Part shown: piece after piece, positions 1,213 to 35,731 of the stretch
Layout of the letters: each line of letters begins with the position of its first letter
Position numbering within the stretch: the stretch's first letter is position 1
DNA from: an uncultured Verrucomicrobiae bacterium
GTDB lineage: Bacteria; Verrucomicrobiota; Verrucomicrobiia; Limisphaerales; JAFGQR01
Length of the DNA stretch: 64,000 nt
Reading direction: 5' to 3'
Assembly (NCBI GenBank): GCA_963788655.1
Contig: CAWBHS010000006.1
Span: 64,001-128,000 of the forward strand
The notes under the pieces: model-generated
The model's database searches: none
What the model was told of the DNA's origin: nothing
Seen by the model: the letters and a program-made list of their open reading frames with translations, nothing else
Made by a program: the position numbers and the translations under genes

Positions 1213-3381
1213 ATGAACTGGCGGCACTACCCGTGGATGCTGGGATTGTGCCTGGCACCGGTTCTGTTTGGCTCAGTCACGCCAGTAGGCCAGACAACTG
1301 TCGCCGTCCTGTTTGCCATTAGCCTGATCCTGCTGCTGCCCGATGGGGGCCGGCCGGGAACATTTCAAGGAATCGTCAAACCCGCTTGGGCTGGTTTGGC
1401 ATTGATCTGCCTCGTGCTTCCGCTGATCCCACTGCCCGTCGGATTGGTCGAAGTCTTGAGCCCGCAGCGCGTCGCTTTGGCGCGCCGTTTCCCCATTGAC
1501 GCGGGAGTAACGTCCGGCTGGCTGCCCCTTACCTTGTCACCGGCCAACACCGTGCAGCGCTGGTGGGAACTGGCTTTGATCGTGACCGCATTTTGGCTGG
1601 CACGTTTGGCGGCGGCCGAAGCGGGATTTTCTCGGCGCCTGGTGTTCGCGGTAGGTGCCACGTTACTGGTACTCGCCGGCAGCGATCTCTGGTTTCGCCT
1701 GACGGGCCAACAGCGCCTGCTTGGACTATGGCCCAATGCGGCCGGGCACGCTGCAGGCACCTTCGCCAACCGCAACCACTTCGCCGGTTGGATCTATGTG
1801 GCCGCGCTATTCTGCTCCGGCTGGCTCCTCCGCCAACTCTGGCCGCTTCAAAGTGCGCGCCAGCCCCGTAGGAGAGGCGTCCCGCCTGTCCCGAACACCC
1901 CTGCGCGTCCAACCGCACCCAATCCTCCCGAACAGTCGCATCCCTCTCCGCGTTCAGGCCAAGCACGTTCAACTGCCATCCCAACGTCCGCTCCAAAGAA
2001 CGCCCTGTTTCCTTCGGGACAGGCGGGGCGCCGGTCCTACTTCGGGGTTCTGCTCCTCGCTCTTACCTTGTTGTTCGCCCTCATAATGGCTGTAAGCACC
2101 GGTTCACGCGCCGGCCTCTTGGCTTTCGTTGCTGGGATCGCAACTTGGACTGTGCTCTTGGCGCGACGTTCCCGAAACCCGAAACGCTGGCTGGCCCTCG
2201 GGGTCGCCAGCCTGCTGGGACTGATGCTCCTTTTGGCCGCCAGTAATTATCTATTGGATCGGCTGGTGGCCAGCCGCAGTGACCTGGCCTTCAAGCTGGC
2301 CATCTGGAAAGATGCCCTGACGATTGGAGGGAAGTTTCCTTTGCTCGGCGTCGGTCCCGGCTCGTTTGTCACCGCCTTTAATCATTTCAAAACCTTCGGC
2401 GGTGACCACACCTTCCTGCACGCCGAAAACGAATACGTGCAACTGCTGGTCGAACACGGCCTGCTCGGCACGCTGCTCCTTGGTGGACTGGTAATCGCGC
2501 TTGGTTTCGCCGCGTTCCGTTACGCAGGGCAAAATAAACTGGCCGAGCCCGAAATGATCTTCAGCGCCCTGGCGGGCCTGGTAGCGTTCGCGGTCCATTC
2601 ACTGTTCGACTTCCCCTTTCAAATTCCGGCCAACGCCCTGCTGGCCGCCGCGCTGTTGGGCTTCGTGCTGGGCCACCGCGATCAAGCCCATCGGGCACCC
2701 GTCCTGGTTCCTGCGCGGCGTCTGCAAATTCTGATCACCCTCGGTTGGGCGGCGGCCTTGCTGGCGATCGCCAGTCTGCAAGCCCTGGCTTGGTGGCATT
2801 GGCAAACGGCGCGCCGAGCCACTTCGACCGACGAACTCGTCCAACACATCCGGCGGTCCGTCGAACTTTGGCCGTGGTCAACCGAGCGCCCAATCGTCCT
2901 GGCCCGGGCACAGGTGAAACGTCTGCAAACACTGAAGCTTGCTGACGCCTCGACCATCCGTGACGAAGCGCGGCGCATCCGCCGGCAATTGCACCAGGCC
3001 ATGACGCGCGATCCCTTCAATTGGGAACTTCGCCTCGAACGCGCCTGGCTGGACTTGGCCTATTGGCCTGAAGCCCGGCGCTCCCTTGAAGAAGCCTGGG
3101 AAGTCACGCGCCTCAATCCGCTCCAGCCGAAAATCCCCCTGCGCTTTGCCCGCCACTTCCGTACTCGGAATCCCGAACTCGCGATGAAATTCGTCCGCAC
3201 CGCGCGATTGTCCACGCCCGAAGACATTTATGAAGCATTACGCCTGGCCTGGGAAATAAACCACGAGCCCGCCCAGTTATGGGAACTCGTGCCACCGACG
3301 CGCACCGGATTGGATTCGCTGGCCCGTTTCGCCGCCGACCAGCAGCTCATGCCGCTGGCAGCACAAGCCCGTGAACGCTGA
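1213..3381 (+). CDS. O-antigen ligase (WaaL/Wzy_C) family membrane protein with C-terminal helical/TPR-like extension; carries an in-frame palindromic insert
   Basis: Multiple TM segments, GTFANRNHFAG, STGSRAG, GVGPGSF, HAENEYVQLLVEHG and VHSLFDFP motifs. Confidence 0.88.
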   Translation: MNWRHYPWMLGLCLAPVLFGSVTPVGQTTVAVLFAISLILLLPDGGRPGTFQGIVKPAWAGLALICLVLPLIPLPVGLVEVLSPQRVALARRFPIDAGVTSGWLPLTLSPANTVQRWWELALIVTAFWLARLAAAEAGFSRRLVFAVGATLLVLAGSDLWFRLTGQQRLLGLWPNAAGHAAGTFANRNHFAGWIYVAALFCSGWLLRQLWPLQSARQPRRRGVPPVPNTPARPTAPNPPEQSHPSPRSGQARSTAIPTSAPKNALFPSGQAGRRSYFGVLLLALTLLFALIMAVSTGSRAGLLAFVAGIATWTVLLARRSRNPKRWLALGVASLLGLMLLLAASNYLLDRLVASRSDLAFKLAIWKDALTIGGKFPLLGVGPGSFVTAFNHFKTFGGDHTFLHAENEYVQLLVEHGLLGTLLLGGLVIALGFAAFRYAGQNKLAEPEMIFSALAGLVAFAVHSLFDFPFQIPANALLAAALLGFVLGHRDQAHRAPVLVPARRLQILITLGWAAALLAIASLQALAWWHWQTARRATSTDELVQHIRRSVELWPWSTERPIVLARAQVKRLQTLKLADASTIRDEARRIRRQLHQAMTRDPFNWELRLERAWLDLAYWPEARRSLEEAWEVTRLNPLQPKIPLRFARHFRTRNPELAMKFVRTARLSTPEDIYEALRLAWEINHEPAQLWELVPPTRTGLDSLARFAADQQLMPLAAQARER
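1868..2040. repeat. REPIN-like element, family A, inside the ligase ORF
   Basis: Arms gtaggagaggcgtcccgcctgtcccgaa (1868-1895) and ttcgggacaggcggggcgccggtcctac (2013-2040) are reverse complements at 25/28; related arms at 45355-45470 and 56178-56308. Confidence 0.88.
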
Positions 3382-3554
3382 GCACCGGCGCGAGGGGAAA
3401 TTTGCCCAGGAAGCAGCTCAACACACGAGCAATACACCAAGTCTGGTTGAGTCGCATCCATCTCATCGTCACCCCGGTACACCGCCACGCAGCAAAGATT
3501 GCCTTCCTTCACTTGACCGGATTTCCTCCCCCGGCCCGGTTTTCGCGCCCGGTT

Positions 3555-3599
3555 CCTCAAAGTGTTCAGTTTTCCATGAACCGATTGAACGTTTTGAGG
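3555..3599. promoter_or_regulatory. Imperfect inverted repeat, candidate operator upstream of the GbsR/MarR gene
   Basis: cctcaaagtgttcag...ttgaacgttttgagg (12/15 complementary) enclosing gttca-N8-tgaac, about 55 bp upstream of ATG 3653. Confidence 0.35.
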
Positions 3600-3652
3600 C
3601 AAGTGACCCGGTGGCGTTGAAGCTGCTTCCCCGGTATCAGCGATTGATTGTT

Positions 3653-4123
3653 ATGACGCTGGCTCCGCTTGAAACGGAAATAATCGACCTGTTCGTGCAT
3701 GTAGCGCGGCTGCTGAACATTCCCAAGTCCGTGGCCGAGATCTACGGGCTCTTGTTCATTGCGCCCACGCCGCTTTCGCCGGACGAGATCATTGCCCGGT
3801 TGATGTTGAGCAAAGGCGCGGTGAGTCAGGGATTGCGGCTGTTGCGCAATCTGGGTGCCGTGCGTGCCGTGTACGTACCGGGCAAACGCAGCGATCATTT
3901 CGAGGCGGAAGTGGAACTTCGCAAACTCGTCAGCGGCGTGCTCAAGGACAAATTGGAACCTCATTTTCACGATGGCAGCGACCGTCTCCAGCGTATGCAA
4001 AGCCTCATCAACGAGCTGCCCACCAACGAACGCGAGCGCGTAAGTCCACGCCTCGACAAATTACGCAGTTGGCAAAAAGCCGGACAGCGCATTCTCCCGC
4101 TGGTCCGGCAGTGTCTGGCCTGA
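3653..4123 (+). CDS. GbsR/MarR-family winged-helix transcriptional regulator
   Basis: IPKSVAEIYGLLFI...LSPDEIIARLMLSKGAVSQGLRLLRNLGAV...PGKRSDHFEAE; start chosen at ATG 3653. Confidence 0.85.
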   Translation: MTLAPLETEIIDLFVHVARLLNIPKSVAEIYGLLFIAPTPLSPDEIIARLMLSKGAVSQGLRLLRNLGAVRAVYVPGKRSDHFEAEVELRKLVSGVLKDKLEPHFHDGSDRLQRMQSLINELPTNERERVSPRLDKLRSWQKAGQRILPLVRQCLA

Positions 4124-4347
4124 AACGGGGCCGAACCAATCCCCGGTGTCCCCGGGCAACATAACCAACGGTCTGCGGCTCCGATCGCTCCGGCGAACCC
4201 CGCACCACCGACAACGACGCAACGTGATCGTGCCGTCCCTCCGGCCAATCGCCAAGTGCGGCAGCTTGTTTCCACCGCGCATGAAAATGCCGATGAACTC
4301 CGGCAAGCTGGCATCTTGCAGGAGCCGTATCGATGCTCCATCCATGG

Positions 4348-4496
4348 TCGCGCCCGCGTTTGGAGTGCGCGGAGCTTGCTCCCGCTTTCATTGGGAACGA
4401 GGCCAACCGACACCAAGCCAAGCATCCATGCGTATCGAATTACCTTCTCAATTCGACAGCGCCGGCAAGCCGGACGCACTCCAAACGCTGGCGCGA
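4348..4496. repeat. REPIN-like element, family D (GCGTTTGGAGTGCG arms)
   Basis: tcgcgcccgcgtttggagtgcg / cgcactccaaacgctggcgcga complementary at 21/22; both arms recur at 30675-30779. Confidence 0.88.
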
Positions 4497-4555
4497 CTCA
4501 CAGCCCACCGTTCCCCAGACTCCGCTTCTCGCATCACCTGCGTCATGCGAATTTC

Positions 4556-5401
4556 ATGAGCGCCTCATCCAACTCCCCCGCCCTCCCCCACGAACTGGTT
4601 CTTGAACCCGGATCGGGCACTGGCCAATATTGGCGTGACGTCTGGAACTATCGCGAGTTGTTCTATTTCCTCGCCTGGCGCGACCTCCTGGTGCGTTACA
4701 AGCAAACTGTTGCCGGCGTCGCCTGGGCGTTGCTTCGTCCGTTCATGACGATGATCGTGTTCACGGTCGTCTTCGGTAAATTCGCCAAACTCCCTGCCGG
4801 CGGCGTGCCCTATCCGGTGCTGGTGTTCGCCGCCGTTTTGCCCTGGCAATTCTTTGCCACTGCCCTCGCCGAAAGCAGCCACAGCTTGGTGACCAATTCG
4901 AACCTGGTGGCCAAGATCTATTTCCCGCGTCTGATCGTGCCCGCCAGCACGGTGGTCACCGGCCTGGCGGACTTGCTCATCTCCACCGTGTTTCTGCTGG
5001 GCTTGATGCTTGGCTATCACGTGACGCCCACGTGGCGGCTGTTCGTGTTGCCGGTGCTGGTTCTGTCCGTCGCTGGGGCCGCGCTTGGGCTCGGACTATG
5101 GTTTGCCGCGTTGACAGTCAAGTATCGCGATTTCCGTTTTATCGTGCCGTTCGTGGTGCAACTGGGCTATTTCATCTCGCCGGTGGGTTACAGCAGCGCC
5201 GTGGTGCCGGAACCATGGCGCGACTTGTATTCGCTCAATCCGTTGGCCGGCATCATCGAGAGTTTTCGATGGGCGATCTGCGGTGGGGCCGTGTTCCCAC
5301 TGACCGGATTGCTGACCGCGGCGCTGCTGGTGACGCTGCTGCTCGTCAGCGGCTTATGGTATTTCCGCAAAACCGAACGCGCGTTCGCGGATGTCATTTG
5401 A
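4556..5401 (+). CDS. wzm: Polysaccharide ABC transporter permease (Wzm/RfbA family)
   Basis: RDLLVRYKQTVAGVAWALLRP, KIYFPRL, LNPLAGIIESFR, ending ERAFADVI. Confidence 0.93.
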   Translation: MSASSNSPALPHELVLEPGSGTGQYWRDVWNYRELFYFLAWRDLLVRYKQTVAGVAWALLRPFMTMIVFTVVFGKFAKLPAGGVPYPVLVFAAVLPWQFFATALAESSHSLVTNSNLVAKIYFPRLIVPASTVVTGLADLLISTVFLLGLMLGYHVTPTWRLFVLPVLVLSVAGAALGLGLWFAALTVKYRDFRFIVPFVVQLGYFISPVGYSSAVVPEPWRDLYSLNPLAGIIESFRWAICGGAVFPLTGLLTAALLVTLLLVSGLWYFRKTERAFADVI

Positions 5402-5402
5402 C

Positions 5403-6710
5403 ATGACCGTTCCCCCCATGATCCGGGTCGAGAATCTGGGAAAAAAGTATCCCTTGGTGCATCGCGGTCCCAGAGATCGTGGCTTGCGGCATTTGATCAG
5501 CGATTCGCTGCGAGCGCCGGTACGGTGCTTACGGCGATTGGGCTCGAGCAGTTCCGCGGCCTTTCGCAGCCGCGCCACCACGGAAGATTTCTGGGCGTTG
5601 AACGAGGTTTCCTTCACCGTTGCCCGCGGGGAGGTGCTGGGCATCATCGGCCGGAATGGCGCGGGCAAATCAACCCTGCTGAAGATCCTGAGTCGCATCA
5701 CTTCTCCCACCGCCGGTCGGGTGCGGCTGCGCGGACGGGTGGCCAGCCTGTTGGAAGTGGGCACGGGATTTCATCCCGAACTGACCGGCCGCGAAAACAT
5801 TTTCCTGAATGGCGCCATCCTCGGCATGGGCCGCGCAGAAATCCGGCGCAAGTTCGACGCCATCGTCGCCTTCGCGGAAGTGGAACGTTTCATCGACACG
5901 CCGGTGAAACGTTACTCGAGCGGCATGTACATGCGGCTGGCGTTTGCCGTGGCGGCGCAACTGACTTCGGAGATCTTGATCGTTGATGAAGTGTTGGCGG
6001 TGGGCGATCTGGCCTTTCAAAAGAAGTGTCTCGGAAAAATGCGCGAAGTCGCCGGCCAGGAAGAGCGCACGGTGCTGTTTGTGAGCCACAACCTGGCGGC
6101 GGTTCGCAAACTCTGCACGCGAGCCATTCTGCTGAACCAAGGCCGCATCGTAATTGAGGGCCCGCCAGATGCCGTCATCAACCGATACGTCAGGGTCAAT
6201 GAGAGTCACCTGGCCGCCAGCATCGCTTTGCCGGCAATGGGCGCGGAGGTGCAACCGCCACAATTGCACTTACTGAACGAGAGCGGTCAATCCCAAGCCC
6301 AATTCCGCCTCGGCGAAACCTGGCGAGTGCAGTTCGATTTCCAGATGGCCGCGGCCCGGCCCCATGTGATCGCGGCCGTCGGCTTGCGCACGGTGGAAGG
6401 AACGCCGTTGATCACGTATTGGTCGGCCCCGAAGGATCTGGCGGCGGGCGCCTATCGCGTCGAGTTTCGTTGTCAGTTACCGTTTTGCGCCGGCGAATAC
6501 AACTTTGCCGTGGGCGTTTCCTCCAACGAACGGGCGATTTACTACACCGAAGGCGCCGGAGCTTTGAGCATTACCGAAGTCGCCCAAGGCGCCCAACCCT
6601 TCCGCGCGGCCGGTGCGGGCTTGATCGCCAGCACGGCGCGCCCGGAGATCGTCCGTCTTGAAGACGAACCGGAAGCAACGCTGGACCCTCCGCTTTGTGC
6701 GAATGGGTGA
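5403..6710 (+). CDS. wzt: Polysaccharide ABC transporter ATPase with C-terminal Wzt_C domain
   Basis: GRNGAGKST, LLEVGTGFHPELTGRENI, YSSGMYMRLAFAVA; about 170 aa C-terminal beta domain; alternative ATG at 5391. Confidence 0.93.
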   Translation: MTVPPMIRVENLGKKYPLVHRGPRDRGLRHLISDSLRAPVRCLRRLGSSSSAAFRSRATTEDFWALNEVSFTVARGEVLGIIGRNGAGKSTLLKILSRITSPTAGRVRLRGRVASLLEVGTGFHPELTGRENIFLNGAILGMGRAEIRRKFDAIVAFAEVERFIDTPVKRYSSGMYMRLAFAVAAQLTSEILIVDEVLAVGDLAFQKKCLGKMREVAGQEERTVLFVSHNLAAVRKLCTRAILLNQGRIVIEGPPDAVINRYVRVNESHLAASIALPAMGAEVQPPQLHLLNESGQSQAQFRLGETWRVQFDFQMAAARPHVIAAVGLRTVEGTPLITYWSAPKDLAAGAYRVEFRCQLPFCAGEYNFAVGVSSNERAIYYTEGAGALSITEVAQGAQPFRAAGAGLIASTARPEIVRLEDEPEATLDPPLCANG

Positions 6711-6829
6711 CTGGCGAACCATGATTGGCCTGGCCACTTACAACGCGTTTCGCCCCAAAACCAATCCAGGTAGGGCAAGCCCTGAAGAAGTCCGCGCAAT
6801 AATATCTTCGTCGTCACGCGATTTCTCCC

Positions 6830-7519
6830 ATGTTCTTCCCTGAACGCATACGCTCGATCCAAGCCGGTGACCGCGTCCTCGAAGTTGGTCCGGGCGGCAC
6901 GCCCCATCCGCGCGCGGACGTGTTTCTCGAACGGCACTTCGATGCCGCGGAAGCCGCCGCCCAACGCGGCCACGCCCCGCCGACCGTGCTCAATAAACCG
7001 ATCGTCTATTATGACGGTGACCGGTTCCCGTTTGCGGACGGCGAGTTTGACTACGTGATCTGCTCGCACGTCATCGAGCACGTGGAGCACGTGGACAACT
7101 TCGCCGTTGAACTCAGCCGCGTGGCGGGCCGCGGTTATCTCGAATATCCGACCGTCTATTACGAATATCTCTACAATTTCCACGTGCATCGCAATGTCCT
7201 GCGTCGCGTGGAAGACGTATTGCTCTGGCTGCCAAAAGGCAGCCTGCCGTTCGCCGAATTCCTGCCCGTGCAACGCTTCTTCTACGAGTCGCTCGGCGCT
7301 GGATTCGACGAAATCGTCGTCGCCTTAAAAGCGACCTTGATGGAAGGCTTTGAATGGCAGCAAGCCATCAAAATGCGGCCGGCCCGGAACCTCGAGGAGC
7401 TTTGCTTGAGCCCGAATGAGATTCAGTTCGGCCCCAATCCATGCAAAGCACCGCGGCCCAGCACGGAACTGGTGGCGGACCTCGCGCATCGTCTCAAACG
7501 GCGCGTCCTTGGCGCATGA
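6830..7519 (+). CDS. Class I SAM-dependent methyltransferase (Methyltransf_11-like)
   Basis: VLEVGPG; FPFADGEFDYVICSHVIEHV. Confidence 0.85.
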   Translation: MFFPERIRSIQAGDRVLEVGPGGTPHPRADVFLERHFDAAEAAAQRGHAPPTVLNKPIVYYDGDRFPFADGEFDYVICSHVIEHVEHVDNFAVELSRVAGRGYLEYPTVYYEYLYNFHVHRNVLRRVEDVLLWLPKGSLPFAEFLPVQRFFYESLGAGFDEIVVALKATLMEGFEWQQAIKMRPARNLEELCLSPNEIQFGPNPCKAPRPSTELVADLAHRLKRRVLGA

Positions 7520-8802: not shown

Positions 8803-8820
8803 GAGCCTATTTGAAAGAAG

Positions 8821-8906
8821 GTGGCAGCCGACGTAAGGAGGTTCATTATTTCTCGGAGAACTGTTTTGATCACGATAATAATGAGCCTCCTTACGTCGGC
8901 CGCTAC
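8821..8906. repeat. REPIN-like element, family B (GCCGACGTAAGGAGG arms)
   Basis: gtggcagccgacgtaaggaggttcattatt / aataatgagcctccttacgtcggccgctac complementary at 27/30; 8801-8841 also repeated at 17201-17241. Confidence 0.88.
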
Positions 8907-8995
8907 GTGCTGGCTGGAGTTTTAGGCCAGTCGTTGAGAGCTACAACAGAGATCGCACGACGCACTGCGGACTGCTGCCTCATCCGCACCTTCCT

Positions 8996-10133: not shown

Positions 10134-11146
10134 TGCCACCGCAAGTCTCCATCATCATGCCGGTCTATAACGCCGAACGCTATATGGCGGCGGCGGTCAA
10201 TAGCCTGCTGGCGCAAACCTTCAACGACTTCGAATTGATCCTCGTGGACGACGCGTCGTCCGACGGAAGCTGGTCCGCTGCCTCGTGGTTCAACGACGTC
10301 CGCATCCGACGGTTCCGTAATTCCCACAACCGGGGCGCGGCGGCCACGCGCAATTGTGGATTGCGGGCAGCACGGGCCAACTATATCGCATTCCTTGACA
10401 GCGACGACATGGCCTTGCCGGCGCGCCTGGAACAGCAAGTTACCTTTCTCGGCGCGCACCCATCCGTTTCCGTGGTTGGCTCGCAAGTCGAAGTGTTGGG
10501 CTGCGACTTCACAGAAAATCCGAAGCTGCGCCGGCGCGCGGAAGAGATTCCCGCAACGTTGCTCTTCGAAAATTGCCTTGCGCAATCCACGGTGATGCTA
10601 CGCAAAAGCAGCCTGCCCGCGGACCCGTTCGATTCGGAGTTCGAGCCGGCCGAAGACTATCATTTGTGGGCGCGGCTGGCTCCTGGCGCCGCCTTCTTCA
10701 ACCTCGAAAAAACGCTGGTCCAATATCGACACCATCCACAGAGCATCAGCCATTCGGCAGCAGCGCGGATGCAACAATCCATCCGCGGCATTGCCGCTCT
10801 GCAACTCGAACGTTTGGGCATCTCCTCACCCGATTTGGAGCTGCACGTAAGCCTGAGCGAGTGGCCCGTCCTGCCTGAACGCCAACAATTGCGACGCGCC
10901 GAAACCTGGTTGCGCGAACTCCAACAAGCCAACCAGGCGCGGGCAATCTATGCGCCCGACGTATTTGCACGCATCCTGGCTGAGCGCTGGTGCGCGGTGT
11001 GTTGCGCCTCGTGGCAACTGGGACTGTGGGCGTGGCTGACTTTCTGGCATTCGCCCTTGAGCCGATTACATCCGGCTCCCATCGTACCGCTCTTGCGATT
11101 GCTCCGCCATGCACTACCCCAAACGATCCGCGGCCGGCGTCGATGA
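10130..11146 (+). CDS. Glycosyltransferase family 2
   Basis: VSIIMPVYNAERY, ILVDDASSD, IAFLDSDD, AEDYHLW; ATGA overlap with TGA 10131-10133. Confidence 0.9.
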   Translation: MMPPQVSIIMPVYNAERYMAAAVNSLLAQTFNDFELILVDDASSDGSWSAASWFNDVRIRRFRNSHNRGAAATRNCGLRAARANYIAFLDSDDMALPARLEQQVTFLGAHPSVSVVGSQVEVLGCDFTENPKLRRRAEEIPATLLFENCLAQSTVMLRKSSLPADPFDSEFEPAEDYHLWARLAPGAAFFNLEKTLVQYRHHPQSISHSAAARMQQSIRGIAALQLERLGISSPDLELHVSLSEWPVLPERQQLRRAETWLRELQQANQARAIYAPDVFARILAERWCAVCCASWQLGLWAWLTFWHSPLSRLHPAPIVPLLRLLRHALPQTIRGRRR

Positions 11147-12600
11147 AGATCGCCTTCGTCAATAATCAGCTTCAATTGGGCGGGGCCGAAACCGTCGTGG
11201 AGCAACTGCGCGCCGGCGCCGGGCAGGCCGGCCATCAAACCCCGCTCTACGTGGCACACGGCAAGACGTATCCGACGGACGTGCAACCGCTTTATCCCCG
11301 CCGGCTCAGCCGGCTCAGTCACACCCGGCTTCACCCATTCGTGGAGCGCTGCTTCCCCCGCGCCACCTGGACCGACCGCGCCTTTCGCCGCTTGGCCCAT
11401 GGCGACGCCGACGTGATTCATGTTCACAATTTCCATGGCGATTATGCCAGCATCGACTCGCTGGCGTATGTGGCCCGGCGCAAGCAAGTCGTTTGGACCT
11501 TCCACGCCTTTTGGGGGATCACCGGTGGCTGTGATCATCCGCTCGATTGCCGTCGCTACCAGAACGGTTGTGGCAATTGCCCGCAGGTCGGCACCTGGCC
11601 CGTCGGCCCGGTGGACCTTACCGCGGAACAGTGGACTGGGAAAGTTGACCAACTGGCGGTTCTGCCGCTGCACGTCATTGCGCCCTCGCGTTACCTGGCG
11701 AACACGGTGCGCGCCAGTCGTGTGGGCCGGCATTGGACGATTCATCAGATCCCGAACGGAGTGAATCCAGCCCGGTTTCCCGGGGCCCGAAAACACGACC
11801 GCAGTTGCCGCGCTAAACTGGGACTTGCCCCGGACGCCACGGTGATCTTGATCGTGAATCGCGCCTTTCGCGATCCGAACAAAGGATTTCCAGTTGTGCT
11901 TGAGGCACTGACGAAGGTATGGGGTAGCCCCCCGGCCAAGGAACTCACATCGCGAGCCACAGACTCGTGCCAACCCGGTAGCGCCGAGTTGCACTCGGCG
12001 GAATCGCAGAGTTGCCATCGGCCCGGGGGCGGCACCAGATTGAAGGTCCAAGCTACGGAAAGGCATCGCCCGTCCCACTGCCACATCGGCGAAATGGCCA
12101 CGGAGCGAGTGAGAGCTGCCCAGCCATCAGTGCAAGTGGTACTGGCGGGAATGGACAGCGCCTGGGCCGCCCCGCAACTGCCCCCCACACTTCCATATTT
12201 CGATGCCGGCTACGTGACTTCGCGCGAACAATTGTCGGGGTTGTTTGAAGCGGCGGACATTTTCCTGTTTGCATCGGCGGCGGAGAACTTTCCTTGCGTA
12301 ATCCTGGAGGCCATGGCGGCCGAATGCTGCGTCGTGGCCACGCCCACTGGCGGCGTGAAGGAACAAATCGCTCATCGCACGACTGGTCTGTTGAGCGAGG
12401 AAATCACCGGCTCATCGTTGGCGAAGCAATTGCGGGAAGCGCTGGCCCATCCACTCCAGCGCCGCGCCTGTGGAGCCAACGCCCGGCAACGGGTGGAGAA
12501 GGAGTTTTCCGAAGAACGCATGGTGACGGCGCACTTGGAATTGTACGCCGAAGTCGTGAACAAGCAACGGATTGAACCGGCTCTGCCCCGCGCCGCATGA
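11143..12600 (+). CDS. GT4 glycosyltransferase (WcaC-like) with an in-frame insert of about 60 aa
   Basis: GGAETVV, IHVHNFHGDY, WGITGGC, ENFPCVILEAMA; low-complexity insert between LTKVW and VQVVLAG. Confidence 0.88.
   Translation: MKIAFVNNQLQLGGAETVVEQLRAGAGQAGHQTPLYVAHGKTYPTDVQPLYPRRLSRLSHTRLHPFVERCFPRATWTDRAFRRLAHGDADVIHVHNFHGDYASIDSLAYVARRKQVVWTFHAFWGITGGCDHPLDCRRYQNGCGNCPQVGTWPVGPVDLTAEQWTGKVDQLAVLPLHVIAPSRYLANTVRASRVGRHWTIHQIPNGVNPARFPGARKHDRSCRAKLGLAPDATVILIVNRAFRDPNKGFPVVLEALTKVWGSPPAKELTSRATDSCQPGSAELHSAESQSCHRPGGGTRLKVQATERHRPSHCHIGEMATERVRAAQPSVQVVLAGMDSAWAAPQLPPTLPYFDAGYVTSREQLSGLFEAADIFLFASAAENFPCVILEAMAAECCVVATPTGGVKEQIAHRTTGLLSEEITGSSLAKQLREALAHPLQRRACGANARQRVEKEFSEERMVTAHLELYAEVVNKQRIEPALPRAA
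11978..12056. repeat. Degenerate GTAG...CTAC hairpin element (family H) inside a GT4 gene
   Basis: gtag followed by a perfect 8-bp hairpin cgccgagt-tgc-actcggcg, ends ...agctac; a similar arm gcagcgcagagttgcgctctc lies at 32230-32250. Confidence 0.55.
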
Positions 12601-13412: not shown

Positions 13413-13454
13413 GACGGACGCACTGCCAGCGCTGGCGCGACTTTCCTGCTGGCC

Positions 13455-16204: not shown

Positions 16205-17031
16205 TGGTTCCGCTCGTCTCCCTTTCAACTTTGCGCCGCGGCCTGCAATCGTTGCTGGCGCGCCATCCGCACCTCTATTGCCGGCTGCTGGGTTGGATTC
16301 ACCGCGGCCGCCTCGAGCAAAGAATCTATCTCACGCTGACTCGGCCGGGGGACGTGGTGTTCGACGTGGGTGCGAATCAGGGGCATTTCACGTTGTTGTT
16401 TGCGGACCTGGTCGGGCCCTCCGGCGAGGTCCATGCCTTCGAGCCGTTACCGCCGACGTTTGCGCATTTGCGCACTGCCGTGGAGCAACACCCGCGCGCG
16501 GACAGGGTGCTGCTCAACAACGTCGCCTGCACCGAACATCCGTGCGAAATCACCCTGCACGTGCCGGACGACGATGGCGGACAAGCGTCGTTGCGACGGC
16601 AGCGTGAGGGATCGTGGCGTTCCGCCGAAGGCCTCTCCATGCTGCCGGTCCAAGCCATTCGCTTGGACGACTACGAACGTGGTCGGGCGGCGGACCAAGT
16701 CGATTTTGTCAAATGCGACGTCGAAGGGGCCGAGCTCTTGGTGCTACGGGGCATGACGAACAAACTGGCCCGACACTCACCGCTGTTGTTCCTGGAGGTC
16801 AATGCGGCCTGGACCGAGCCCTTTGGATATCGTCCCGCCGATCTGATCGCGTTCCTCGAATTGATGGGCTATGATTCGTTTTATCTGGTAACGGATCAAA
16901 TATCACCCATGGCCGATCCCGGCGCCACGGTCGCCATGGCGGCAGCAAGTGAAGCAATCAATGTGCTTTGCGCCCACGCGGAACATCACGCGGAGCGGCT
17001 GCAAAGTCTGGCAGTGATCCGGTCGCACTGA
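16204..17031 (+). CDS. FkbM family methyltransferase
   Basis: VFDVGANQG, HAFEPLP, VKCDVEGAELLVLRG. Confidence 0.92.
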   Translation: MVPLVSLSTLRRGLQSLLARHPHLYCRLLGWIHRGRLEQRIYLTLTRPGDVVFDVGANQGHFTLLFADLVGPSGEVHAFEPLPPTFAHLRTAVEQHPRADRVLLNNVACTEHPCEITLHVPDDDGGQASLRRQREGSWRSAEGLSMLPVQAIRLDDYERGRAADQVDFVKCDVEGAELLVLRGMTNKLARHSPLLFLEVNAAWTEPFGYRPADLIAFLELMGYDSFYLVTDQISPMADPGATVAMAAASEAINVLCAHAEHHAERLQSLAVIRSH

Positions 17032-17053
17032 GCGGTATGAATTCACGCAACCT

Positions 17054-17242
17054 GGGGAGCGTGCCCGCCTCGGGCGCTGTCAATGGCGCCTCGCCATCGA
17101 CTCGAATAGTGCCGGGCGTTGAAACCATTGTGAGCCATCCTCCGTCCGATGGTCGGCGCGAGGCGCGCCGACCGACAGGCGGGGCGCCTGTGGTCCCCAT
17201 GCGAGTCTGTTTGAAGGGTGGTAGCAGCCGACGTAAGGAGGC
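17054..17242. repeat. Composite REP cluster: family C element (17054-17198) plus a family B arm (17221-17242)
   Basis: ggggagcgtgcccgcctcgggcgc...ggcgcctcgcc also at 27175 and (reverse) 35813-35855; perfect 10-bp hairpin ggtcggcgcg-agg-cgcgccgacc at 17151-17173; gtagcagccgacgtaaggaggc at 17221. Confidence 0.82.
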
Positions 17243-17288
17243 TTACTTTTATGGCTAGGAGTCCGGCTGCCAATTTCAAGTTCTCACC

Positions 17289-18413
17289 ATGTCCTGGAAA
17301 CGGTGTTTGATGGAAGCAGCGGTATGGTCCGCTGGCCGGCTGGCCCATTCGGTTTCGACGCTGCCGGCCAATCCGCGGTCGATTTTCGTCCTGCGCAACA
17401 ATGACCTGGGCGATGTGCTGGTGATCACGCCGCTGTTCGAAGCGCTGCGGAAGCGCTTTCCTGGCGCGCGCTTGGTTGCTGGGGTCGGCAGTTGGAGCGC
17501 GCCGTTGCTCGAGGACAATCCTTATGTCTCCGAAATCGTGCCGGTCAACGCCCCCTGGCACAATAAAGTCATCACCCCTAACGGCAGGCAGGCGGCCTTC
17601 CAATACATTTATGCCTCCGCCGAGGCACGCGCGTTGTCGCGCCGACGGTTCGACATCGGCATTGACGTACTGGGAAGTCCGTGGGGTTCGTTATTGCTGA
17701 TGCGTTGTGGCATCCCGTATCGATTGGGGGTGCAAGGATACGCCGGGGGACACAGCGCGACGCAGCAGTCCGTGCTATTCAACTCACGCGAACAGGTCGG
17801 ACGCGCGGCGTTGCGCTTTGCGGAATTGCTCGGCGCAACGAGCCTGCCGCATAATCAGCCGCAAATTTTCCTGAGCCCAGAAGAACAGGAGACTGCCGAA
17901 CGACGCTGGCATCAACTCGGTTTACCGATTCCCAACCTGGCGACGCGGATCGTGGTGGCACCGGGTGGCGGCTTTCCGGAGAAATGTTGGCCCCGCTCGC
18001 ACTGGGCGGAATTGCTGCACCTATTGGGCGACGAAATCACATGTTCGCTCCTGGTGGTCGGCAGCCAAGCCGACCAGCGCGCCGGCGCCGAACTGGCGCA
18101 AGCACATCCGCTGGTGCGCAGTCTCTGCGGTCAGACCAGTCTGCGGGAAACCTGCGCGTTGGTCGCCCGCGCTGATCTGGTCATCTGCAATTCCAGTTTC
18201 CTGATGCACGTGGCCGCGGCCTTGGGCAAACCGGCGGTCGTAATACTCGGTGGCTGGTTTCCGTCGGCCACGGATCATGAGGTTCAGTGGGGTTACCCCA
18301 AGGGCATGGTCGTGTTCGGCCGGGACAGGGATCGTCCGCGCATCTTTTCGCCACGCGAAGTCTATGCCGCGCTCGAGGATTTCTTCACCAACCACCAGGC
18401 GCTGGCCGCATGA
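17289..18413 (+). CDS. Glycosyltransferase family 9 (heptosyltransferase-like)
   Basis: NDLGDVLVITPLFEALRKRFP, PGGGFPEKCWP, LCGQTSL, ICNSSFLMHVAAALG. Confidence 0.9.
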   Translation: MSWKRCLMEAAVWSAGRLAHSVSTLPANPRSIFVLRNNDLGDVLVITPLFEALRKRFPGARLVAGVGSWSAPLLEDNPYVSEIVPVNAPWHNKVITPNGRQAAFQYIYASAEARALSRRRFDIGIDVLGSPWGSLLLMRCGIPYRLGVQGYAGGHSATQQSVLFNSREQVGRAALRFAELLGATSLPHNQPQIFLSPEEQETAERRWHQLGLPIPNLATRIVVAPGGGFPEKCWPRSHWAELLHLLGDEITCSLLVVGSQADQRAGAELAQAHPLVRSLCGQTSLRETCALVARADLVICNSSFLMHVAAALGKPAVVILGGWFPSATDHEVQWGYPKGMVVFGRDRDRPRIFSPREVYAALEDFFTNHQALAA

Positions 18414-19540
18414 AGATTGCCTTTCTCACCAGTTGCCTGGCGCCGGGCAAAGACGGCGTCGGCGATTACACGCAGTTGCTGGCGGAAGAGTGTGAACGCC
18501 TCGGACACCGTTGTGCGCTGCTGGCGCTGAACGACAAATTTGCAGCGGACGAATCAAGCCCGGGCTTGCGCTTGAGCGCCGACCGGCCCTGGTCCGAACG
18601 TCTGGCGCAGGCCCGGAGTTTTTTGGAGTGGTTCAAGCCGGACGCGGTGAGTCTCCAGTTCGTTTGTTACGGCTATCATCCCAAGGGCATCCAACCGCGG
18701 CTGGCCAAATGGTTTCAACCGCTGATCAACGGCGCGCGATTGCACCTCATGCTGCACGAGCTATGGATCGGCGAGGAAACCGGGGCGTCGCTCAAGGCGC
18801 GTTTGATCGGCGCCGCCCAGCGCTGGAGTGTGTTGAACATGGTGCGTCGGCTGCAACCGAACGTGGTCAGCACCACCAATCCCGCCTATCAAAGCGTCCT
18901 TCGGCACCGCGGGATTGCCGCCGGCCAACTGCCCTTGTTCAGTCCCATCCCGGTGCGGCCCGCCGGACAGAGCGCCTGGGTGTTCGACGAGTTGCAACGC
19001 GGCGGCGTTTCCGTCACCCCCGAGACGCGCGATACGTATTGGCTTTTTGGTTTCTTCGGCACGCTGCATCCAGTCTGGCCGCCGGAACCGCTGTTCGCTT
19101 ATCTGCGCGAAGCGGCCTGGCGCCACGGCAAACGCCTCGGAGTCTGCGCCATTGGACGAATCGGCTCCGGCGAGGTTCGCTGGAAAACCATGACTCGCGA
19201 TTACGCGGGGGCGTTTGCTTTTTGCCCATTCGGCGAGCAACCGCCGGAGCGGGTGTCGGATTTTCTGCACGCCATGGATTTCGGGATTGCCACGTCTCCC
19301 TTGGTCCTGCTCGGCAAGAGTGGGACGGCCACCGCGATGATCGAACATGGCCTGCCGGTTATTGTGAATCGCAACGAAGTGCGTTTTCGGGCCCACGCCG
19401 AGACGCCCAACGGCACCTCGCCGCTGGTGGTGCGGATGGATCCCGAACTGCCGCGCAAACTGGCCGCAATACGCCGCCAGCCACCGCAACCGACGTTGCC
19501 CACGGTGGCCAGAAAATTCTTGTATGAACTCGAACGCTGA
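18410..19540 (+). CDS. GT-B fold glycosyltransferase (GT4-like)
   Basis: GKDGVGDYT, HLMLHELW, GFFG, LGKSGTATAMIEHGLPVI. Confidence 0.75.
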   Translation: MKIAFLTSCLAPGKDGVGDYTQLLAEECERLGHRCALLALNDKFAADESSPGLRLSADRPWSERLAQARSFLEWFKPDAVSLQFVCYGYHPKGIQPRLAKWFQPLINGARLHLMLHELWIGEETGASLKARLIGAAQRWSVLNMVRRLQPNVVSTTNPAYQSVLRHRGIAAGQLPLFSPIPVRPAGQSAWVFDELQRGGVSVTPETRDTYWLFGFFGTLHPVWPPEPLFAYLREAAWRHGKRLGVCAIGRIGSGEVRWKTMTRDYAGAFAFCPFGEQPPERVSDFLHAMDFGIATSPLVLLGKSGTATAMIEHGLPVIVNRNEVRFRAHAETPNGTSPLVVRMDPELPRKLAAIRRQPPQPTLPTVARKFLYELER

Positions 19541-20279
19541 ACGGAGTTATTCCCCGGCTCCCCAATCGCCGCGGCCGTTGCGTGACTTCTTCCAATACCG
19601 CCTGTCCACGCTCTGCGCGCAGCCACGGATCACGGGAGCGGACGCCGGCTTTGCCCTGCCCAATTCGTCGCTCGCCTTGTTGCGCGACATCATCGACGAA
19701 CTCGAACTGAAGCAAGTGTTTGAATTTGGCACGGGCCGTAGCACCCAATTATTTCTGGACTGCGGTTGCCATGTGACCGCCGTCGAAGACAACGAAGATT
19801 GGTTGCGGCGCACGCTAATGGCGTTGGCCTGGGAGCCGCGCTCGCGGTTGCGCGCCAAGTTGTGTCCGTTGAAAACCGTGTACGACGACGGCTCACCGTT
19901 CCTGGGCTGGCGACTGGACCGGGAACAACGGCAGGCACTGCGGGACGCGGAATTGGTGTTGATCGATTCGCCGGCCTTTCCGCCCTTTCGCGAACACGCG
20001 CTCATCACGGCCTTGAAACTGAACCGCCGCGCGGTGGTCGTGCTGGATGACGCCGCCATTCCCACGGTCCAACGTTTTTGCACGCGGTTGACCGCTCGCA
20101 ACCAGCTCGTGCGACATTACACCCGGATGGACCACGGATTGTTCTTCTTTTGTCCGCCACCCGCCGACACTCGGCTTGACACGGCGCGCGGTTGGGTGGA
20201 AACGGTGAAAGCTTGGCGCCGTTACGTGCTGGGGTCGCGACTTTGCTTCCGTCCGAAAGGCACCGCCGTTCCGTTATGA
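19524..20279 (+). CDS. Putative class I SAM-dependent methyltransferase
   Basis: VFEFGTGRST, VTAVED, LVLIDSP, VVVLDDA. Confidence 0.65.
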   Translation: MNSNAERSYSPAPQSPRPLRDFFQYRLSTLCAQPRITGADAGFALPNSSLALLRDIIDELELKQVFEFGTGRSTQLFLDCGCHVTAVEDNEDWLRRTLMALAWEPRSRLRAKLCPLKTVYDDGSPFLGWRLDREQRQALRDAELVLIDSPAFPPFREHALITALKLNRRAVVVLDDAAIPTVQRFCTRLTARNQLVRHYTRMDHGLFFFCPPPADTRLDTARGWVETVKAWRRYVLGSRLCFRPKGTAVPL

Positions 20280-21529
20280 AGATATTGATGTCCTCGCACT
20301 TGTTCCCGCCCAGCGTGGGCGGCATCGAACGCGTCGGCTGGCTGCTGGCGCGGGGCTTTGCCGAACTGGGACACGAGGTGCGCGTGGTGACGCAGACGCC
20401 GGCAGGCGGCCAAGGAAATTGTGGTGTTGCGCCTTTAGCTAGAAAAATTCGCACGCCGCTTGAACCACTGACAGCTTGTAGCCGCCGACGTGAGGAGGCG
20501 GAGGAGGGTCAGGAAACATTGGATCCGCCTCCTGATGTCGGCGGCGGTCATGGGGATAACTGGAGTGCCGAACCGCCTCGTCTCTCGCTGGTCGCGCGCG
20601 CACCGGAAGTCGTACGCCGCCCTTCCTGGACCGAACTCGTGCGGGCCGTTCGCTGGTGTGACTTGTATTTGCACAACAACATCAGCCTGCAAACGGCCTG
20701 GCCATTATTGTTTGCGCGGCGGCCATGGGTGCTGGTGCATCACACCTGGATTGCGCGGGTCAATGGCACGCTGGGTTGGCGGGATCACCTCAAGCGCCTG
20801 GCGGCGCGATGGGGCTTTTCGATCACCGTCAGCACAGCGATGGGCCGGGCGTTGCCGGTTTCGTCCATCGTTCTGCCCAATCCTTACGATGACGAACTGT
20901 TTCAGGAACTGCCGGGCGTTGAGCGCGACCAGGAGTTGATCTTTGTGGGCCGCTTGGTGTCGGACAAAGGAGCCGACGTGCTGATCGAAGCCTTGGCGAA
21001 ATTGCGACAGCAAAACCTGACGCCGCGTTTGACTCTGGTAGGCGATGGACCGGCGGCGGCCCGATTGAAAGCGCTCGCTTATGAACGCGGCGTGAAACCG
21101 CAGATCACCTTCGCCGGGGCGAAGACGGGGCTCGAACTGGTTGAGTTGCTGAATCGGCACCGGATTATGGTGGTGCCATCGCGATGGCAGGAACCGTTCG
21201 GCCTGGTGGCGCTGGAAGGCATTGCGTGCGGATGTGTCGTCGTCGGCTCCAGCGGCGGCGGATTGCCGGAAGCCATCGGGCCGTGCGGGGTAACGTTTCC
21301 CAACGGCAACAGCGAGCGGTTGGCGGAAGCGCTGGGAGACTTGCTCCGAAACCCGGCTGCATTGGACGGCTATCGCGCGCCAGCCCGGGCGCATTTGCGG
21401 CCGCACCAGCGCAAACACGTCGCGCAGGCTTATCTGACCGTCTTCCAAAACTTGCTACAATTGAAACGGCACAATCCATTCGCCATTCCACCTAGGCAAC
21501 AAACGGTTCCCGTGAAACGCGCCGCTTGA
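20276..21529 (+). CDS. GT4 glycosyltransferase with an in-frame insert of about 60 aa
   Basis: FPPSVGGIE, FVGRLVSDKG, EPFGLVALEGIACG; insert after VRVVTQTP contains a family B repeat. Confidence 0.9.
   Translation: MKILMSSHLFPPSVGGIERVGWLLARGFAELGHEVRVVTQTPAGGQGNCGVAPLARKIRTPLEPLTACSRRREEAEEGQETLDPPPDVGGGHGDNWSAEPPRLSLVARAPEVVRRPSWTELVRAVRWCDLYLHNNISLQTAWPLLFARRPWVLVHHTWIARVNGTLGWRDHLKRLAARWGFSITVSTAMGRALPVSSIVLPNPYDDELFQELPGVERDQELIFVGRLVSDKGADVLIEALAKLRQQNLTPRLTLVGDGPAAARLKALAYERGVKPQITFAGAKTGLELVELLNRHRIMVVPSRWQEPFGLVALEGIACGCVVVGSSGGGLPEAIGPCGVTFPNGNSERLAEALGDLLRNPAALDGYRAPARAHLRPHQRKHVAQAYLTVFQNLLQLKRHNPFAIPPRQQTVPVKRAA
20478..20548. repeat. REPIN-like element, family B, inside a GT4 gene
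   Basis: gtagccgccgacgtgaggaggcgga / tccgcctcctgatgtcggcggc form a hairpin; arm matches intergenic copies at 8821 and 17221. Confidence 0.85.
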
Positions 21530-21595
21530 GCAGCCGTTACTATGAAGCAGCGTGGGGGCAGTTAACGGCCACTTGCCTGTTGAAAGCGCCGGCAA

Positions 21596-21789
21596 CGTGC
21601 TGCCGGCGTCCCGCCGGCAGAAACGGATGTGGTGAGAGCGGCCGAACCATTGTCCTAAAATCGACCGCTGTTTGTCCGTTCGATCTGCCGGCAGGATGCC
21701 GGCAGCACGCTGGTGCTGGCGTTCACTTGGAACACGCGATGCCATGTCGCGCAAACGTTTGGCCGTGTGTGGGGCTTGCTCCCGCTTTC
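21596..21789. repeat. Composite REP cluster: family E hairpin (21596-21709) plus a degenerate family D arm (about 21755-21789)
   Basis: cgtgctgccggcgtcccgccggcaga / tctgccggcaggatgccggcagcacg complementary at 24/26; gcttgctcccgctttc identical to 4374-4389. Confidence 0.82.
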
Positions 21790-21881
21790 GTTCGCAGCCG
21801 AACGCTCCTAAAGCAAACCAGCGCAGCTATGAAATTTGACGGCGTCTCGTCAGCGACAAGTGTCGCGTCAATGGTGAACGC

Positions 21882-23237
21882 ATGATTCTCATCAGCCATC
21901 CCACGGGAAATACGTTCGTGCGAGCCCTGTTGCAGGGACTTGCCGACGGGGGCCGCGATTATACGTTTCACACGACCTTGGCGGCAGACACAAACCGATG
22001 GTGGACTCGCTGCTTGCCAACCGGTTTGCGCCGGGAATGGATGCGCCGCTCGTTTCCGGTGCCGCAAACACGTTGCCGGCAGCACCCCGTTCGCGAATTT
22101 GGACGGCTGCTTTCTGCCCGTCTGGGACTGGCACCGCTGGTGCGGCATGAGACGGGGGTGTTCTCCGTCGATGCGGTGTATCGGGGTCTGGATCGAGCGG
22201 TGGCAGGCAAACTGCGAACGATGGTCGGCACTCAACCAGTGCAGTCGGTGTATGCCTACGAGGACGGCGCCCACGCCACGTTCGTTACGGCAAAGGAAAG
22301 GGGCATCCAGTGCTGCTACGAATTGCCCATCGCGTATTGGGAAACGTGCCGGCAATTGTTGTCCGAAGAGGTCCAACGCTGGCCGGAATGGGAACCGACG
22401 TTGCTGGCCGCGCGGGATTCCGACGCCAAGTTGCAACGCAAGACCGAGGAACTGTTACTCGCCGACGTGGTGATTTGTCCCAGCCAGTTTGTTTATCGCT
22501 CGCTGCCGCCGCCCATCCGGAACGCGAAACGATGCGTGATCGCAGAATTTGGATCACCCGCGGTGCCGGTCTTGGGATTGAATCGTGGCGGTATCCCGGC
22601 CGGGTTCAGGGCAAGAGCGACGCAAACGATTTGCGAAAGTCAGCGCCTCTTTGCGTCGGCTGCTACCCGCCCGGAAGGGCGCGCCCCGTTGCGAGTCTTG
22701 TTTGCCGGCGCGATGACGCAACGCAAAGGGCTGGCCGATGTCTTTGCCGCGATGCGCCTGCTCCGACGTAGCCACGTGGAATTGGTGGTCATGGGATCGC
22801 CACTGCTGCCGCTCGAATTCTATCGGCGCCAGTTTTCAAATTTCCTTTATGAACCACCGCGCGCGCACGGTGATTTTCTTGAGTTGATGCAGCAATGCGA
22901 CGTGCTCGTGCTGCCTTCAATTGTCGAAGGGCGGGCGCTGGTGCAGCAGGAGGCGCTGAGCTGCGGTCTCCCCCTGATTGTGACCGCCAACGCCGGCGGC
23001 GAGGATTTGATCGAAGCAGGCCAAACCGGCTGGTTGGTGCCGACCGGCGATCCGGAGGCGCTGGCGGAAAAGCTCACTTGGTTTACGGATCATCGCCGGG
23101 AGTTGCCGGCCATGCGTGAAGCCGCCCGCACCAAAGCCGCCGCCTACACTTGGGAACGCTATGCTCAAAAGATCCTGCAGACGGTGGCGCCAACCAAGCC
23201 GTCGGCGTCCACCCTGGCCGCCGCCATAGCCGCTTGA
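21882..23237 (+). CDS. GT4 glycosyltransferase with a repeat-derived insert in the interdomain linker
   Basis: ADVVICPSQF, LRVLFAGAMTQRKG, PSIVEGRALVQQEALSCGLP. Confidence 0.9.
   Translation: MILISHPTGNTFVRALLQGLADGGRDYTFHTTLAADTNRWWTRCLPTGLRREWMRRSFPVPQTRCRQHPVREFGRLLSARLGLAPLVRHETGVFSVDAVYRGLDRAVAGKLRTMVGTQPVQSVYAYEDGAHATFVTAKERGIQCCYELPIAYWETCRQLLSEEVQRWPEWEPTLLAARDSDAKLQRKTEELLLADVVICPSQFVYRSLPPPIRNAKRCVIAEFGSPAVPVLGLNRGGIPAGFRARATQTICESQRLFASAATRPEGRAPLRVLFAGAMTQRKGLADVFAAMRLLRRSHVELVVMGSPLLPLEFYRRQFSNFLYEPPRAHGDFLELMQQCDVLVLPSIVEGRALVQQEALSCGLPLIVTANAGGEDLIEAGQTGWLVPTGDPEALAEKLTWFTDHRRELPAMREAARTKAAAYTWERYAQKILQTVAPTKPSASTLAAAIAA
22645..22666 (-). repeat. Single family B arm inside a GT4 gene
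   Basis: Reverse complement gtagcagccgacgcaaagaggc matches 17221-17242 gtagcagccgacgtaaggaggc at 20/22. Confidence 0.75.
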
Positions 23238-23245
23238 ATGAAACG

Positions 23246-30578: not shown

Positions 30579-30674
30579 GAAGATCCTTTGCTTTCAATCG
30601 AACGGCGCGGGTGGAGAACCGGCGCCGTTTTTGTTTTTGCAGGAAGGTTTACCGCGGTGCGGGCAGCACCCACC

Positions 30675-30779: not shown

Positions 30780-30822
30780 GCACGGTGAATGGCAGTCAAT
30801 TTCCCAACCGCCTTTCCACATT

Positions 30823-35524: not shown

Positions 35525-35530
35525 CAACTC

Positions 35531-35703: not shown

Positions 35704-35731
35704 GCGGGTTGGGGTGCTCAGTAAGAAGGCC

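Follow-up and report, generated by a model that had tools for sequence, protein, structure and literature searches.

We report that four genes of a single polysaccharide locus each carry an in-frame segment holding a GTAG-tagged palindromic repeat, in a stretch of 64,000 nucleotides (nt) from an uncultured Verrucomicrobiae bacterium (hereafter the window; C6:64001-128000 of an 8.96-Mb draft genome of 115 contigs with 59.6% guanine plus cytosine, GC). The segments, which lie in an O-antigen-ligase-like gene and three family 4 glycosyltransferase (GT4) genes, are insertions relative to homologues, hold copies of dispersed repeat families and leave the reading frames open, and the same in-frame residence is found at about 30 other places in the genome, housekeeping genes included. 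We propose that these segments of 27-66 codons are probably tolerated passengers in loops predicted to be disordered and not adaptive modules. In the model we favour, the repeats, which we treat as repetitive extragenic palindromes (REPs), would spread as single-stranded hairpin DNA through a REP-associated tyrosine transposase (RAYT), an HUH nuclease of the Y1 type, support for this step having been obtained for family A only. Insertions that break the frame or the fold would be lost, and the survivors would be the rare copies that lie in loops or linkers able to accept them and that add, in total, a multiple of three nt. Such copies would then be translated as unstructured loops.

Four in-frame segments absent from homologues

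The first-pass annotation of this DNA had claimed that four genes of the locus hold GTAG/CTAC-tagged repeats in frame, that their frames stay open with catalytic motifs kept, and that several unrelated repeat families take part, and in all of these respects we agree with it. The four repeat-bearing open reading frames (ORFs) are open with the expected domains, Wzy_C in one and Glycos_transf_1 in three, homologues are gapped at each site, an E-x7-E motif is seen 3′ of the insert in each of the three GT4 translations, and the distinct families A, B and H are all present in frame in the one locus. The segments without counterpart in homologues amount to 49, 66, 59 and 27 codons in the ligase-like gene and in GT4-11143, GT4-20276 and GT4-21882 (named by start position), and the claimed span of 35-65 amino acids (aa) is corrected by measurement to 27-66 aa. 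The tags were read at 1868/2040, 11978/12056, 20478 and 22666, the right end of the B copy having diverged. In the feature lines below, pLDDT is the predicted local distance difference test, pTM the predicted template modelling score and REPIN a REP doublet.

1213..3381, + strand: O-antigen-ligase-like gene, 722 aa, Wzy_C at aa 284-423, long C-terminal extension (ORF, translation, Pfam)
1868..2040, no strand assigned: family A REPIN, 173 nt, arms 1868-1895 and 2013-2040, read in frame as aa 219-276
11143..12600, + strand: GT4 glycosyltransferase, 485 aa, Glycos_transf_1, model pLDDT 85.4 and pTM 0.83
11920..12117, + strand: 66-codon in-frame insert, aa 260-325, 198 nt, homologues without the segment, pLDDT<50
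11978..12056, no strand assigned: decayed family H element, GTAGCGC-hairpin ... CTAC, 79 nt (sequence, regex family)
20276..21529, + strand: GT4 glycosyltransferase, 417 aa, Glycos_transf_1, model pLDDT 83.4 and pTM 0.82
20420..20596, + strand: 59-codon in-frame insert, aa 49-107, 177 nt, homologues without the segment, pLDDT<50 at aa 46-103
20478..20548, no strand assigned: family B palindrome of canonical size (71 nt), right arm diverged, fold z -7.6
21882..23237, + strand: GT4-like glycosyltransferase, 451 aa, Glycos_transf_1
22587..22667, + strand: inter-domain linker expansion of about 27 codons, aa 236-262, 81 nt (homologue alignment)
22645..22666, - strand: single decayed family B arm, CTAC end at the 3′ edge of the expansion

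At the ligase site the family A arms, 28 nt each and 89% complementary, were matched about 260-319 and 123-192 times genome-wide in a relaxed BLAST search, and coverage falls to single figures right outside 1868 and 2040. A search at E<=1e-25 found orthologues in 23 of 200 other genomes of the order (24 of 201 when this one is counted), and among the orthologue matches listed the alignment stops at about query residues 217-228 and restarts at 269-284 with few subject codons between. A MAFFT alignment places a 49-residue gap at the REPIN site in 8/8 orthologues and, as the REPIN is read as residues 219-276, the whole of the gap is explained by the repeat, the RNA of which folds at z -5.1 against shuffles. 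The insert, which encodes RRGVPPVPN, is Arg-rich and follows a conserved PLQSAR motif amid hydrophobic stretches, so that under the positive-inside rule it would form a cytoplasmic loop.

The insert of GT4-11143 is equally sharp against its homologues, with nothing at residues 260-325 in 40/40 of those aligned, and a same-genus orthologue, 65% identical, lacks the same residues (about 66). No second BLAST copy of the 79-nt H element was found in the genome at E<=1e-3. The best weak matches share one design, a GTAGCGC tag followed by a GCNGA-NTTGNNN-TCNGC hairpin with compensatory changes in the stem, and a regular expression for that design matched 12 copies in its strict, 31 in its loose and 45 in its core form, compared with 0, 1 and 0 when the genome was reversed. 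The stem is perfectly complementary in 10/12 of the strict copies. Family H is thus a real family, small and heterogeneous, and the copy within GT4-11143 is a decayed member of it (fold z -0.6).

In GT4-20276 the left arm of the palindrome has about 118 genomic BLAST matches. Residues 49-107 have no aligned residue in 41/42 homologues and a single one in the remaining homologue, the homologues carrying a tight turn of about 8 residues instead, and about 58 residues are missing at the site in two syntenic orthologues that are 54-55% identical. Among the listed single-domain homologues length is mostly 310-376 aa, compared with 417 aa here; the top matches, of 629-724 aa, are longer forms. The orthologue in the relative G026 lacks the insert though the G026 genome is rich in family B.

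The fourth site is a linker expansion that ends in one decayed B arm (about 20/24 matches to the B consensus, counted by eye; fold z -2.1), the end of which, a 14-mer, is covered about 141-151 times genome-wide by relaxed BLAST. Two orthologues lack 22+5 residues, and the spacing between EFGSP and PLRVLFAG, 61 residues here, is 32-35 in 28/34 homologues and 37-66 in the other 6/34. In three homologues (P0277, P0326 and P0316) this inter-domain linker has expansions of its own, the largest adding 32 residues.

These expansions, which arose independently in 6/34 homologues, bear on an alternative in which the sites were already lineage-specific loops of variable length and the REP copies came late, adding only part of each segment. 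We give this alternative a real but minority chance. It also accords with the non-repeat parts of the segments being unique, unlike the repeats, and with element lengths that are not multiples of three. Against it stand the empty GT4-11143 site in every aligned homologue and in the same-genus orthologue, the tight 8-residue turn in 41/42 GT4-20276 homologues, and the ligase gap that the REPIN alone spans. Furthermore, the flanks of the B insert sum to 106 nt and the repeat to 71 nt, neither a multiple of three, so that with the flanks alone the frame would have been lost as well.

Structure prediction, which the first-pass annotation had proposed for locating the inserts, was applied to two of the GT4 proteins, and the AlphaFold2 models, built from alignments of 43 (GT4-20276) and 41 (GT4-11143) sequences, are confident GT-B folds in which both inserts are predicted to be loops without secondary structure. 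In GT4-11143 aa 266-325 are predicted to lie between a helix (249-260) and a strand (330-337) of the C-terminal domain, and in GT4-20276 the insert is placed in the N-terminal domain, after strand 34-39 and before strand 111-114.

A second alternative, that the four genes were inactivated by the insertions too recently for their frames to have closed, finds some encouragement in GT4-20276, where the conserved FPF motif beside the B insert is replaced by RAP. We consider it quite improbable, since all four segments are stop-free multiples of three within an intact and tightly packed locus, the E-x7-E motifs are kept, the H repeat and the B arm of GT4-21882 have decayed while their host genes stayed open, and uvrA and a PBP1A-type gene elsewhere in the genome bear the same kind of insert. 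The suggestion that repeats were mis-joined into genes of a metagenome-assembled draft, with its 5.6% contamination, is barely credible to us. It draws on the one public run found, with no RNA run listed, which covers a small share (0.08) of positions 19900-23300 and whose contigs match 20122-20272 and 20285-20480 exactly and then end at the edge of the B arm. That match, however, includes the unique left flank of the insert, although the contig may come from the same sample and so is not independent; the frame is exactly continuous at each site, unique sequence stands on both sides of each repeat, and tabulated cases of the same kind exist in Opitutus terrae PB90-1 (PMC3733652).

The locus itself occupies bases 1-24000 of the window on the + strand, as read from Pfam domains and ORFs. 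It encodes a P-loop ATPase with an AAA_31 domain, the Wzy_C ligase-like protein, an ABC-2 permease and an ABC ATPase that make a Wzm/Wzt-like pair (the Wzt_C match of the ATPase being weak, 29.3 bits against a cut-off of 30.4 bits), methyltransferases, an acyltransferase-3 protein, several GT2 proteins, one GT9 and the three GT4 proteins. Its genes are otherwise intact and tightly packed, GC is even along it at 0.60-0.62 with no compositional island, and named homologues of the window proteins come mostly from Verrucomicrobiota metagenome-assembled genomes.

Repeat families, mobilisation and element length

The genome is rich in short palindromic repeats: 2003 canonical 16-mers present in at least 10 copies merge into 3358 blocks and 1379 clusters. 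Several heptamer tandem repeats (for example of GATGCCG, ATCCAGC, GATGACC, CAATGAC, CAGTGAC or GATTACT) are among the commonest 16-mers. The family A pattern GTAGGACAGGCG-NNN-CGCCTGTCC gave 58 exact matches and the family B pattern GTAGCNGCCGACGTRAGGAGGC 156, each compared with 0 in the backward control. Among the 41 genomes searched family A is present in 3, with 0 copies in the same-genus genome, and family B in 19, patchily across the order, four relatives (of G026, G031, G039, G005 and G001) holding 163, 150, 102 and 70 exact arms and the same-genus genome none. The GTAG...CTAC pairs are fixed in size: family A has 86, measuring 115-117 or 133 nt, and family B has 59, measuring 70-71 or 86 nt. 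The expectation that the arms at the four sites would prove multicopy thus holds for A and B, which are high-copy, and for H as a real if small family, the fourth site falling short with a single decayed B arm.

REPINs, reportedly defined by Bertels and Rainey in 2011, are said to be REP doublets that go with a RAYT. Family A resembles them in its inverted doublets of fixed size and in having one Y1_Tnp gene, C75:71867-72097, with A REPINs on both sides. This gene, whose translation contains an HVH motif, stands in the classical RAYT arrangement for family A, judged from its sequence and flanks, and the A repeat beside it encodes TGGTPVLP. The system here differs in two respects, as REPINs are defined as extragenic and no flanked RAYT was found for family B in this genome or among the loci fetched from B-rich relatives. 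RAYT mobilisation of these repeats, as claimed for the window, may therefore be upheld for family A and was left without a flanked gene for family B, which we file simply as a GTAG-tagged palindrome for that reason.

Twelve Y1_Tnp matches exceed the Pfam cut-off in this genome. The one on C110 is flanked by another repeat family. The C2 gene has one B arm 46 nt past its stop and none upstream, and its product (C2:9895-10869) is a 325-codon Y1_Tnp protein with a long C-terminal extension and tandem GAAGGGGTCG-like repeats upstream. The genes at C50:3938, C60:344912, C62:172989 and C49:85244 share ATAAAGTGACAGGTTCAAAG about 80-130 nt away and look like IS200/IS605-type genes, not RAYTs. In the four B-rich relatives, none of the 30 Y1_Tnp loci fetched (of 43 matches) was B-flanked.

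The first-pass annotation had singled out a common stop-avoiding phase of the left-arm GTAG. The three intragenic left-arm GTAGs of the window do all read xGT-AGx, as found by arithmetic from the ORF starts and by script, but the shared phase was rejected as a special feature, both non-stop phases being in use: of 12 distinct in-frame sense GTAGs genome-wide, 8 are xGT-AGx, 4 are GTA-G and 0 are G-TAG. The zero is expected because open frames were a criterion of selection. Paired B elements are stop-free in 49/57 cases in the first phase and in 39/57 in the second.

Several observations weigh against our reading of the segments as repeat insertions that were simply tolerated. Only 18/84 canonical A elements and 6/57 canonical B elements have lengths divisible by three, and simple insertion alone therefore cannot explain the kept frames. 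The recognisable repeat makes up 71/177 nt at the B insert, 79/198 nt at the H insert and 22-58/81 nt at the fourth site, while the ligase copy, at 173 nt, exceeds the canonical 115-117 or 133 nt and has a unique loop. The non-repeat flanks of the B insert have no other genomic copy by BLAST, and all seven non-repeat segments (7/7) score within the shuffled range when locally aligned with 83 repeat consensi. A nested older palindrome was also considered and is unsupported, as the complementarity of the flanks was reached by shuffles at frequencies of 0.88 (B), 0.42 (H) and 0.97 (outer A flanks). Neither this genome nor the 30 loci fetched from the four B-rich relatives yielded a RAYT flanked by family B arms. 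Finally, part of the drop in pLDDT across the inserts necessarily follows from alignments that are empty at these positions, and the genome is an 86%-complete draft in 115 contigs.

The repeat is thus about a third to two thirds of the three GT4 inserts and all of the ligase insert, and the claim that repeats supply whole peptide loops holds at the ligase only, with 23-119 nt of non-repeat DNA at the other three sites. The comparison of gap with repeat in orthologue alignments, proposed earlier as a check, likewise found all four sites gapped and the gap coincident with the repeat only in the ligase; in GT4-20276 a 177-nt insert around a 71-nt repeat makes the gap 2.5x the repeat, leaving 106 nt that are not palindrome. 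Relaxed BLAST returned background-level matches only for the A loop and the H and fourth-site flanks. At the part-repeat sites neither the repeat nor the remainder alone is a multiple of three, and the remainder may have come from an older loop specific to the lineage or from compensating DNA. Either the repeats entered such loops, with small indels restoring the frame, or DNA was added in the event by which the insertion became fixed.

The second branch leads to a reading in which REP insertions seed new protein loops: a frame-keeping event would add unique DNA together with the repeat, and the resulting disordered loop of 60-200 nt would outlive the repeat itself. We consider this reading unlikely as it stands. 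It would follow from the repeat being only part of the insert and from element lengths that are not multiples of three, whereby survival in frame needs extra DNA, and tightly packed operons, the glycan locus among them, would then collect inserts because they offer no intergenic space in which a repeat can persist.

In-frame repeats across the genome

The residence of repeats within coding sequence was surveyed genome-wide with a score of codon usage trained on long ORFs, which found the right frame in 265/291 test windows. A cluster was counted when it spanned 20-600 nt, lay in a frame stop-free for at least 200 nt on each side and had distal flanks that scored as coding; 239/1379 clusters fell outside this size range and were left out. 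A 16-nt conserved gene motif, TCAACGAAATCATGTA, was excluded as it is not a REP. Of the remaining clusters 31/1140 passed, or 24 under a stricter version, and the repeats are therefore mostly extragenic, with more convergent than divergent flanking genes (114 vs 51). The survey detects 2/4 of the window sites, family H and the fourth-site B arm being missed because they are too low-copy or too decayed, so that 31 is an underestimate. About 14/31 sites are without Pfam support on both sides, and some of these may be intergenic or upstream of the true start. At C47:2558-5569 (L045), for example, an OEP (TolC-like) domain and a HlyD_3 domain share a single stop-free frame with a 271-nt repeat cluster (4060-4330) between them, either as read-through of an intergenic array or as a fusion.

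By our own tally from Pfam scans and orthologues, about 17 sites are truly internal. Eight lie in repair, replication and restriction genes (UvrA at two sites, a UvrA-like protein, DnaE2 at two sites, a UvrD/PD-(D/E)XK protein, a SNF2/type-I-R-like protein and an MmeI-like protein), three in envelope or glycan genes and six elsewhere, the remaining hosts being PBP1A, TrpE, HypF, LarC, a GtaA-type protein, an FAD-oxidase/Fe-S protein, a 6119-codon ORF, the ligase-like protein and GT4-20276. The uvrA product (C39:104533-107697, L044) aligns to PDB 9gxk in three pieces, 9-254, 344-517 and 561-1055, with about 70 and 43 extra aa at its two repeat sites. The second of these insertions is partly a tandem heptamer (GGATGCT/GGATGCC). 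The DnaE2 clusters are at 212959-213016 and 214454-214544 on C88, where C88:211459-216030 (L056) joins ImuB-like (IMS, IMS_C) and DnaE2 domains in one stop-free frame.

This census bears directly on the proposal, made from the window, that surface-glycan enzymes are preferred recipients of REP-encoded loops, which there tune or diversify polysaccharide synthesis. In its favour are the four sites within 21 kb and, under one uniform criterion, the presence of 2/31 in-frame clusters in a locus whose length predicts about 0.07. In-frame sites also cluster more than repeat clusters generally: at distances of up to 25 kb, 9 pairs were counted and 2.4 expected (P=0.003), and at up to 5 kb the figures were 4 and 0.54 (P=0.005). 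Repeats of all kinds are about twice as dense in the locus as in the genome on average, with 6 clusters where 3.0 were expected. The locus was chosen for its feature, however, so that its enrichment is post hoc, and the neighbourhoods of UvrA, DnaE2, C109 and C65 cluster likewise; the glycan locus is one of several in-frame clusters. The claimed concentration in surface-glycan enzymes gives way genome-wide to 8/17 sites in repair, replication or restriction against 3/17 in envelope or glycan genes, hosts being mostly of the former kind with assorted enzymes, as in the tables of PMC3733652. The three GT4 inserts, moreover, fall at three different positions of the fold, and the modelled inserts are predicted to be disordered. 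We therefore judge adaptive remodelling improbable, and nothing supports an adaptive role in glycan synthesis.

Comparison with known systems

The Rickettsia palindromic elements (RPE), reportedly described by Ogata and colleagues in 2000, invite comparison. As with RPE, palindromic mobile repeats are found here in frame within unrelated genes whose frames are kept, and the RPE-like behaviour proposed for the window is borne out as a resemblance of behaviour, with no membership by sequence claimed. The two differ in the host phylum and, as far as the tabulated R. conorii intragenic repeats go, in class, these being CGTC repeats and those here GTAG-tagged (PMC3733652). In-frame coding insertion can no longer be regarded as a Rickettsia hallmark, since in-frame GTAG REPs were tabulated for Opitutus terrae in 2013 (PMC3733652). 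More generally, the same source lists REPs inside genes of several species, many of them replication and repair genes (PMC3733652), and in-frame fusion of repeats with genes has been reviewed (Delihas 2011, PMC3184786).

The nearest precedent is O. terrae, for which Additional file 3 part 1 contains 70 rows of intragenic GTAG REPs by word count (Di Nocera et al. 2013, BMC Genomics 14:522, PMC3733652). In both genomes the repeats are GTAG/CTAC palindromes, single or dimeric, mostly extragenic with a minority in frame, and the hosts overlap strikingly: the rows for strain PB90-1 (NC_010571) include uvrA, dnaE2, HypF, an N-6 DNA methylase, GH2 and LpxK, and each O. terrae uvrA listed has two REP sites at residue numbers roughly like those found here (PMC3733652). 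The GTAG-19 peptides TGGTPVP and GTGVPPV of O. terrae match the family A products TGGTPVLP and RRGVPPVPN. Apart from being another genome, O. terrae differs in that the published work makes no comparison with families B and H and that its REP-encoded residues number mostly 7-53 (PMC3733652), whereas at three sites here the insert is two- to threefold the length of the repeat. The words glycosyl, O-antigen and polysaccharide gave 0 matches in the four supplementary files of PMC3733652, and a literature search returned nothing on REPs within glycosyltransferase or O-antigen-ligase genes.

In-frame residence of GTAG repeats in verrucomicrobial genes is thus already known from O. terrae, as recorded in the tables of PMC3733652. 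Three things are new here: that a ligase-like protein and three GT4s of one locus serve as hosts, how large the inserts are for the repeats they contain, and a quantified census of one genome. This habit of verrucomicrobial GTAG repeats is thereby extended to an O-antigen-ligase-like protein and to three GT4 glycosyltransferases, and about 30 in-frame sites are present in a single draft genome. For annotators the result is a caution that long low-complexity loops in such genomes derive from repeats and are not functional domains, and the inserts provide natural maps of insertion tolerance for the GT-B fold and for UvrA.

Palindromic clusters of other families also lie between genes of the window, at 4347-4497, 8816-8911, 17063-17243, 21591-21792, 30667-30787, 35530-35842, 56213-56355 and 58741-58813. 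The first of these falls within the longest ORF for the ABC-2 permease, upstream of its domain, and is probably 5′ of the true start.

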